From an uncultured bacterium (GTDB lineage Bacteria > Fidelibacterota > Marinisomatia > SCGC-AAA003-L08 > D37C17): DNA of 31,728 bases. The notes beneath the pieces were generated by a model that saw nothing but the letters and a program-made list of their open reading frames with translations, did no database searches and was not told where the DNA came from. Made by a program: the position numbers and the translations under genes. The stretch covers positions 1,161 through 32,888 of the forward strand of contig CAYVBB010000001.1 of NCBI GenBank assembly GCA_964448515.1, in the 5' to 3' direction. Below, piece after piece: positions 19,180 to 19,487 of the stretch (within the stretch, counting starts at the first letter, position 1; every line of letters starts with the position of its first letter).

Positions 19180-19197
19180 TATAATTTAACGAAGGAG
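19180..19197 (+). promoter_or_regulatory. Candidate -10 box (TATAAT 19180-19185) and strong SD (AAGGAG 19192-19197) of the 75-aa gene
   Basis: The SD is 8 nt from the ATG at 19206. The -10 is a perfect match but has no recognisable -35, and the background is AT-rich. Confidence 0.55.
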
Positions 19198-19205
19198 ATA
19201 AAATC

Positions 19206-19433
19206 ATGGCTGAAAAAGTAGCAAAATGTGGAGTACAAAAAGAAAAAGGTTACTTATACTATTTAGGTAAAGATGGTAACGTTTGGGCATCTAAAATGGC
19301 TAGAGGTAGCGATAAAGGTGGAAACGCAAAAAAAGTTGCTGATACAAATGTAACTAGAGAAAAAGGATGGTTATATTTTGTAGATAAAGATGGAGATGTT
19401 TCTAAAGCTCCTATGGCAAGAGGTAGAAAATAA
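19206..19433 (+). CDS. Small basic two-repeat protein (75 aa), putative nucleic-acid-binding; resembles archaeal chromatin protein CC1 (from recall)
   Basis: Strong SD, own terminator, internal duplication; 17 K/R versus 9 D/E. The CDS is well supported; the product call is inference. Confidence 0.85.
   Translation: MAEKVAKCGVQKEKGYLYYLGKDGNVWASKMARGSDKGGNAKKVADTNVTREKGWLYFVDKDGDVSKAPMARGRK
19209..19424 (+). repeat. Protein-level tandem duplication, two 33-aa units at a 39-aa period
   Basis: AEKVAKCGVQKEKGYLYYLGKDGNVWASKMARG (19209-19307) versus AKKVADTNVTREKGWLYFVDKDGDVSKAPMARG (19326-19424): 18/33 identical without gaps. Confidence 0.92.
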
Positions 19434-19455
19434 GTCTTTTTCAACTCTTATAATT

Positions 19456-19487
19456 AAAAAGCCTTCTTTTTAGAAGGCTTTTTTTTT
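19456..19487. terminator. Bidirectional intrinsic terminator
   Basis: AAAAA-GCCTTCT-TTTT-AGAAGGC-T9, between the convergent 75-aa gene and plsY; it has a T-tract on both strands. Confidence 0.9.

Follow-up and report, generated by a model that had tools for sequence, protein, structure and literature searches.

The 31,728-nucleotide stretch of DNA analysed here (the window: assembly GCA_964448515.1, contig CAYVBB010000001.1, positions 1,161-32,888 of the forward strand) comes from an uncultured Marinimicrobia/Fidelibacterota bacterium (D37C17) with a genome of 1.41 Mb and 26% G+C. It carries a small gene (19206-19433, + strand) encoding a basic protein of 75 amino acids (aa) that is built of two repeats. 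We put the chances at about even that this protein is an abundant, autoregulated, nucleoid-type predicted DNA-binding protein with a new fold. It would bind DNA mostly non-specifically, and would in addition recognize a short motif in which an A-tract follows CGWCGAG. Since this motif is repeated three to four times over the protein's own promoter, it would keep its own production in check, as do Fis, HU and other nucleoid proteins; in the AT-rich lineage of the window, the motif would have decayed to a single AG-rich remnant. That the protein binds the motif, binds bulk DNA and is abundant is what we infer from the observations described below. As regards the first of these points, the motif would most simply be the site of the gene's own product because it accompanies the gene whether the core promoter is of a bacterial or an archaeal kind.

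A motif repeated over the promoter of the small gene

The promoters of the orthologues consist of CTTGAC, a spacer of 17-18 nucleotides (nt), and then TACACT, TAACAT or TAGAAT. Around them are found three to four copies of CGWCGAG, mostly extended by A or AAA, and these copies occupy fixed positions: two, about 12 bp apart, lie just 5' of the -35 element, one lies in the spacer and one right after the -10 element. When 78 loci are scanned with a loose pattern, the motif reaches a density of 7.6 per kb over the 160 nt that precede the small gene, versus 0.17 per kb elsewhere, and all 16 clusters of at least three copies within 120 nt are located directly upstream of the gene. Pairs of exact copies separated by 2-30 nt occur only at the small-gene promoter in five whole genomes (1.7-2.5 Mb), with one exception, a match within what appears by eye to be a tRNA gene and which we judge to be due to chance. 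Over the whole genome, the exact 9-bp palindrome CTCGWCGAG shows no enrichment, and thus no regulon is visible. Operator-like copies of the form CGWCGAG(A)AAA were seen in loci L009 to L048 and in many others, between about -140 and -50 relative to the small gene.

In archaeal orthologues, the motif adjoins the TATA box. In one example, CTCGTCGG is followed, after about 15 nt, by YCGACGAAAAG and then immediately by TTTATAAA. Over 29 archaeal loci the motif is found at 5.4 per kb upstream of the gene versus 0.39 per kb elsewhere, with exact copies of the core in 12 loci. The 8-mer TCGWCGAR is rare in one AT-rich archaeal genome, with only 9 matches on each strand, and one of these lies about 30 nt 5' of the small gene; GC-rich archaeal genomes contain the 8-mer frequently, so that their loci count for little.

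The promoter in the window is a weak match to the consensus and escaped a simple sigma-70 scan. It was placed by alignment (A4) with the clear CTTGAC-17-TAGAAT/TACACT promoters of the closest relatives. So positioned, the putative promoter covers 19124-19152 (+), with TTGGTT as the -35 element (19124-19129), a 17-nt spacer and TATTTT as the -10 element (19147-19152). According to the alignment, what is left of the spacer copy of the CGWCGAGAAA operator-like motif is a degenerate, AG-rich remnant, TAGAAGAGAAAT (19132-19143, +), at the site where four relatives (L005, L006, L061 and L018) have TAGACGAGAAAT or TAGAGGAGAAAT.

The protein also differs in this lineage. In repeat 1, the arginine of a V-x-R turn (position 28) is replaced by alanine in the window, in L004 and in L007, where the CG-rich motif has decayed, and in repeat 2 the equivalent conserved arginine (position 67) is replaced by lysine in the window and in L004. 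Nearly all the other orthologues keep an arginine at both positions. As far as sequences can tell, the joint loss of the arginines and the motif would be compatible with arginine-guanine contacts. Covariation between protein and motif across the loci is confounded by relatedness, and only the loss of Arg28/Arg67 in the clade of the window stood out.

Other elements were noticed in the region preceding the gene. Seven loci (L009, L012, L014, L021, L024, L031 and L057) have a conserved, lineage-specific element in the 5' untranslated region, between the -10 element and the Shine-Dalgarno (SD) sequence, made of an inverted repeat, ATAGAGA...TCTCTAT, and then CCACTACCAAA; its resemblance to a DnaA box is probably due to chance. 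In the window, the intergenic region that precedes the small gene contains two copies of TTTTTGTAG, at 19088-19098 and 19150-19159, about 62 nt apart, the second copy overlapping the putative -10/start region.

A basic protein of two repeats with a new predicted fold

The protein (8.26 kDa, isoelectric point (pI) 9.75) contains 13 lysines, 4 arginines, 6 aspartates and 3 glutamates, which gives a net charge of +8. Repeat 1 (aa 2-34) and repeat 2 (aa 40-72), separated by a linker (aa 35-39; linker sequence GSDKGGN), align without gaps, with 18 identical residues out of 33. The BLOSUM62 score of one repeat against the other is 91, compared to 20.5 +/- 4.3, and at most 43, in 2000 shuffles. The N-terminus, as read from the sequence, has no hydrophobic stretch. 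Thus, the two 33-aa units, their 18 identities, the charge of +8 and the absence of a signal peptide, which a first-pass annotation of the window had listed, are all confirmed on the translated open reading frame (ORF), and the pseudo-dimeric, basic design that it had proposed is upheld by a repeat alignment far above the shuffles.

When provided with an alignment of the family (A1), AlphaFold predicts an all-beta structure (predicted local distance difference test (pLDDT) 91.4, predicted template modelling score 0.75) with three strands per repeat, at residues 3-6, 16-20 and 26-30, and 42-45, 55-59 and 65-69. This model replaced an earlier one, obtained from the single sequence, which was poor (pLDDT 65) and on which a fold search was meaningless. 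Foldseek gave no match in the PDB (best E = 0.4), VIA-align no significant neighbour among 48,161 chains (top Z = 3.1), and the Swiss-Prot models of AFDB no significant fold match; Sul7d and Cren7, which have an SH3-like barrel fold, are absent from the Foldseek PDB, the wide VIA-align and the Swiss-Prot AFDB lists. Searches of the AFDB clusters and of the ESM Atlas returned members of the family only, with template modelling (TM) scores of about 0.9, some of them auto-named DUF5050, Histone, SHOCT or PH. Nor does the protein have a Pfam match to HU/IHF (PF00216) or to the cold-shock domain (PF00313). The weak structural matches are mostly beta-propeller blades (PD40, with a TM score of 0.54, tachylectin, BNR and LRP4), and the family profile matches the YWTD blades of LRP6 marginally (E = 0.002); in Pfam, DUF5050 reaches 12 bits for a cut-off of 27 (E = 0.12), and Ldl_recept_b and PD40 give no match. 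It is possible that the repeat is distantly akin to propeller blades, without being a member of them.

A large family shared by bacteria and archaea

Sequence searches of the available copies of Pfam, NCBIfam and the PDB returned nothing significant. A word-indexed search gave 1,328 clusters at 90% identity, many of them from Marinimicrobia/SAR406 and all labelled 'hypothetical', just as the first-pass annotation had expected of standard pipelines. An exhaustive phmmer search of 1.84 billion representatives gave 808 clusters at 50% identity, and a search with a 55-sequence profile (A1) at least 7,315 family proteins, counted at 90% identity. Two relatives (P0297 and P0308) bear a precomputed Pfam label, PF27482.1, which is absent from the Pfam copies searched; the family may have been given a very recent Pfam entry. 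No homologue was found in 50,697 phage records.

Family members have 70-85 aa and two repeats, many of them with Lys/Arg tails. The unit, of 35 aa, is also found in longer proteins: some have Lys/Arg-rich tails like those of histone H1, two units follow ParB_N and HTH_ParB, an ASCH domain is flanked by units on both sides, another combination involves zinc ribbons, GAF and Prok-RING, and a membrane protein has eight or more copies (these multi-copy and fusion proteins are P0121, of 886 aa, P0138, of 354 aa, P0217, of 601 aa, P0188, of 442 aa, and P0226, of 468 aa).

The named sources are Marinimicrobia/Fidelibacterota, Omnitrophota, Elusimicrobiota/Endomicrobia, Planctomycetia (an NCBI label), Woesearchaeota/Nanoarchaeota and Thermoplasmatota. 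The protein had been described as bacterial, but the family is not specifically so, being equally common in DPANN and Thermoplasmatota archaea. Indeed, a protein from a Thermoplasmatota archaeon (P0315) is 83-86% identical to proteins of Endomicrobia, which are bacteria (P0430 and others). So high an identity, which universal proteins do not approach between the two domains, implies lateral transfer together with very strong constraint.

In the phylum of the window, the gene is present in 215 of 301 sampled genomes. Twenty-one families of this phylum (f1-f21) have it in almost every genome, nearly always as one copy, including 27 of the 30 genomes of 0.7-1.1 Mb, while it is absent from all 73 genomes of five other families. 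The phylum of the Woesearchaeota loci has the gene in 98 of 151 genomes, and the small-genome phylum to which L075 belongs (as does, by shared synteny, the Omnitrophota-labelled L077) in 112 of 251. The genome of the window contains a single copy, together with two HU/IHF genes and three cold-shock genes, so that the small protein adds to these proteins and replaces neither kind.

Signals of expression

The small gene is a real, stand-alone unit, as had been claimed, with its own SD sequence and terminator. The SD sequence, AAGGAG (19192-19197, +), lies 8 nt 5' of the ATG. The clarity attributed to it is well founded, this hexamer being found upstream of only 28 of the 1017 crude ORFs of the window genome (2.8%); any four-base SD core is found upstream of about 20% of these ORFs. 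Among 80 orthologous loci, a GGAG or GAGG core precedes the start in 78, the first 80 nt downstream contain a stable hairpin (about -20 kcal/mol) in most, and the median upstream gap is 264 nt.

The intrinsic terminator of the window (19456-19491, the hairpin and T-run being given as 19456-19483) has a 12-bp stem preceded by an A-run and followed by a T-run. It stands between the small gene and the convergent plsY gene, and is probably bidirectional. It was rightly singled out as the only textbook terminator of the window: the six other terminator-like matches have 5-8 pairs, occur at chance frequency and lie, for at least five of them, inside ORFs. Rfam gave only sub-threshold matches on the locus, due to this hairpin.

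High expression had also been deduced from codons ending in C, namely TAC for 2 of 4 tyrosines and AAC for 2 of 3 asparagines. These counts are correct, but the argument fails in the window genome because its ribosomal-protein genes favour neither codon: in 14 ribosomal-protein and elongation factor G (EF-G) genes, TAC accounts for 9.8% and AAC for 5.7%, no more than in all ORFs. The bias is visible on the scale of the family. C-ending codons for Tyr, Phe, Ile and Asp are commoner in the small gene than in its flanks in 57 of 79 orthologous loci (Wilcoxon p = 3e-5, which is overstated since the loci are related), CGT (0.35 versus 0.15) and GGT (0.41 versus 0.31) are also commoner than in the flanks, and GGG, CGG, AGG and GCG are avoided. 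In a library filed as metatranscriptomic, which is probably DNA, the two bins of the gene have summed word depths of 159 and 75, versus 0-10 in the flanks, a mere hint of expression because the sum mixes strains and the run may be DNA. The strong SD, terminator and codon signals across the family are in keeping with the abundance that the first-pass annotation thought probable.

Neighbouring genes

In the window, the 5' neighbour is a gene for a hydrolase of the metallo-beta-lactamase fold, on the same strand and 130 nt away, and the 3' neighbours are a convergent plsY-FakA/DegV pair. Directly upstream of plsY (19493-20119, - strand), a single 592-aa ORF (20121-21899, -) joins Dak2, the FakA middle domain and DegV, and is thus a FakA-FakB fusion. 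The plsY/FakA synteny is restricted to part of the phylum of the window and the genes are convergent, which speaks against a functional link with the small gene.

Elsewhere the neighbours vary, uvrA being recurrent (loci L075, L077, L079, L082, L083 and L089-L118; L042, L044 and L068; and L073 were used for the uvrA/Hef neighbourhood). In the phylum with the Omnitrophota-labelled member, uvrA is directly 3' of the small gene in 21 of 30 loci, in a block composed of aspartate dehydrogenase, the small gene and uvrA. It is directly 5' of the small gene in L042, L044 and L068, which represent one lineage, L042 belonging to family f30 of the phylum of the window. In one Woesearchaeote, a gene for a Hef-type DEAD helicase-ERCC4 nuclease lies 3' of the small gene. 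The uvrA and Hef neighbours are suggestive of a DNA context. In two unclassified bacterial metagenome-assembled genomes (MAGs; L070 and L071), a sequence resembling by eye the 3' end of a tRNA is found between clpB and the small gene.

How the evidence weighs

Several observations weigh against the idea of an abundant, autoregulated nucleoid-type protein. The motif could belong to another factor, to which its conservation across the two domains is the sole counterargument. Most loci of the phylum with the Omnitrophota-labelled member, as well as the Elusimicrobia loci, have it in a weak form or not at all, and the window is down to one degenerate copy. The parallel loss of arginines and motif concerns a single clade. 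The predicted fold matches no known DNA-binding fold in Foldseek, VIA-align or the Swiss-Prot models, and the small gene reaches only the 67th percentile for ribosomal-protein-like codon use within the window genome. The two HU/IHF and three cold-shock genes leave no obvious gap to fill, and the adjacency to uvrA reflects mostly one inherited synteny block, which includes the unrelated aspartate dehydrogenase gene. The nucleic-acid binding predicted by the first-pass annotation receives indirect support, from the promoter motif present in both domains, the ParB and ASCH fusions, the Lys/Arg tails and the uvrA/Hef neighbours, and it is DNA specifically that these indications suggest.

It is rather unlikely that the protein is an abundant RNA-binding protein, an RNA chaperone or a ribosome-associated factor, with a promoter motif that belongs to another regulator. 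In keeping with such a role, it is small and basic, the conserved exposed aromatic residues of its KG(Y/F/W)LY(F/Y) strand superficially recall the RNP1 of cold-shock proteins, it is retained in genomes of 0.7-1 Mb, an ASCH fusion exists, one member received the automatic name 'predicted RNA-binding protein' at the Joint Genome Institute (JGI), and a possibly related protein of M. luminyensis shows hardly any enrichment in the nucleoid despite its abundance (PMC7613761). However, most copies of the motif lie 5' of the -35 element or of the TATA box and hence are in DNA, not in the transcript; moreover, the ParB fusion and the uvrA/Hef neighbours point to DNA, and no ribosomal or translation genes were seen adjoining the small gene among the annotated neighbours. 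A site that is specific, repeated, partly palindromic and overlaps the core promoter, along with a pseudo-dimeric protein suited to paired sites about 12 bp apart, would also be expected of a low-abundance, sequence-specific transcription factor controlling mainly itself and a few targets, rather than of a bulk chromatin protein. We consider this improbable, since the five whole genomes contain no other clusters of the motif that would reveal a regulon, and since the strong SD sequence, the codon bias and the very high cross-domain conservation suit an abundant general protein better.

The likeness to propeller blades raises another idea, namely that the protein is a two-blade fragment assembling into an oligomeric, propeller-like ring that binds a ligand or a partner and has nothing to do with nucleic acids. 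The match of the profile to LRP6, the near-exclusive presence of blades (PD40, tachylectin, DUF5050) among the weak structural neighbours and the Pfam value for DUF5050 agree with it. We nevertheless hold it to be very improbable: each unit has three strands and not four, the model of the monomer is compact and confident, the structural scores all remain low (Z no higher than 3.1), and the strong positive charge and the Lys/Arg tails would be left unexplained. The prediction of a three-copy complex, corresponding to a six-bladed ring, gave no answer (score 0.01) and weighs neither way. Least probable of all is that this bacterial protein is related to CC1, the chromatin protein of Crenarchaea. 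The two share a general likeness (small, basic, beta-rich, probably abundant), but no search returned a crenarchaeal or CC1-named match, the CC1 sequence itself not having been aligned, length and architecture differ, and homologues of CC1 were found by jackhmmer in a few Crenarchaea only (PMC7613761).

Returning to the abundant, autoregulated nucleoid-type protein, one may venture a wider proposal, which we advance more tentatively. The family could constitute a new class of DNA-binding or chromatin proteins, with a fold of its own, present in many uncultivated bacteria with small genomes (Marinimicrobia, Omnitrophota, Elusimicrobia) and in archaea (DPANN, Thermoplasmatota) through strong constraint and lateral transfer, and carrying its own operator, so that one and the same protein-DNA recognition would control sigma-70 and TATA promoters. 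If true, this cross-domain operator would exemplify something rare, a protein and its DNA site that act together in regulation at bacterial and archaeal core promoters alike. Small abundant proteins that organize DNA are known from few model lineages, and the small-genome groups of the ocean and the subsurface are largely unexplored in this respect. The present family, which has no solved structure, ranks with the best conserved small proteins of the uncultivated small-genome groups and is kept even in genomes of 0.7 Mb. What is new here is a promoter-specific motif common to two domains, checked for uniqueness in whole genomes, in addition to the surveys of phyla, the statistics on codons and SD sequences across the family, the uvrA and Hef neighbours, the resemblance of the repeat to propeller blades and the negative result with CC1. 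The motif turns a vague guess about nucleic acids into a concrete and cheap experiment, with a 75-aa protein and a 100-bp promoter fragment containing four sites.

Comparison with known systems

CC1, from Thermoproteus tenax (UniProt G4RKF6), is a small, basic, beta-rich protein of 56 aa with a pI of 10 (PMC7613761, PMC4200833). It was the first-pass annotation that drew the parallel, and the likeness lies in the general type, that of a small, basic, beta-rich, highly expressed chromatin-type protein. At 56 aa and about 6 kDa, CC1, a protein that binds ssDNA and dsDNA, has no reported two-repeat design, whereas the window protein has 75 aa, 8.3 kDa and two 33-aa repeats; CC1 is confined to a few Crenarchaea, as seen with jackhmmer (Hocher et al., PMC7613761), whereas the window family occurs in many bacteria and archaea. 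No crenarchaeal or CC1-named protein was listed among the matches from Pfam, NCBIfam, the PDB, the AFDB clusters, the Swiss-Prot models or the phmmer and profile searches, in which the CC1 sequence itself was not compared, and the few listed matches that have an organism name include none from Thermoproteales or Aeropyrum. The proposed relationship is thus not sustained, the sequence and fold searches returning the protein's own family only.

The closest described protein is a candidate nucleoid-associated protein of Methanomassiliicoccales (WP_019177984.1 / AGI86273.1), which makes up 1.34% of the proteome of M. luminyensis (Hocher et al. 2022, PMC7613761). This candidate, of 70-74 aa, is predicted to bind nucleic acids and is found in archaea and in some bacteria; abundant as it is, it shows hardly any nucleoid enrichment, and its bacterial homologues are mainly from Sphingomonadales and Rhodobacterales (PMC7613761). 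Like it, the proteins of the window family are of about this size, basic and Lys-rich, form single-gene units, and have an AlphaFold fold without known relatives. Unlike it, they were not seen in Sphingomonadales or Rhodobacterales. The window family is present in Thermoplasmatota MAGs, but no Methanomassiliicoccales-named protein is found among the roughly 400 family proteins listed, which include those of a search started from a Thermoplasmatota member. Matching representatives by pI and length gave no link to the candidate, and a cluster and contig look-up of likely archaeal members led to metagenome records only, again with no Methanomassiliicoccales link. The candidate is therefore a lead, compared by description, with a homology that could not be confirmed.

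The blades of beta-propellers (YWTD/LDL-receptor class B, PD40, DUF5050) share with the repeat a strand-turn-strand pattern, G-aromatic-L-Y-aromatic-x-D-x-x-G...R/K, with a period of about 38 aa, in addition to the marginal profile match (E = 0.002) and a TM score of about 0.5 over two blades. The window protein differs from them in having two units of three strands, in forming no ring within a single chain, and in being cytoplasmic and strongly basic.

As regards its mode of action, there is an analogy with Fis, HU and IHF, to which the small protein is related neither in sequence nor in fold, and of which HU/IHF are separately present in the genome of the window. The fis gene is an established case of a promoter with multiple sites for its own product. 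The small protein would work like these proteins, being, as they are, small, monocistronic and, probably, abundant, with multiple putative sites for its own product over its own promoter.

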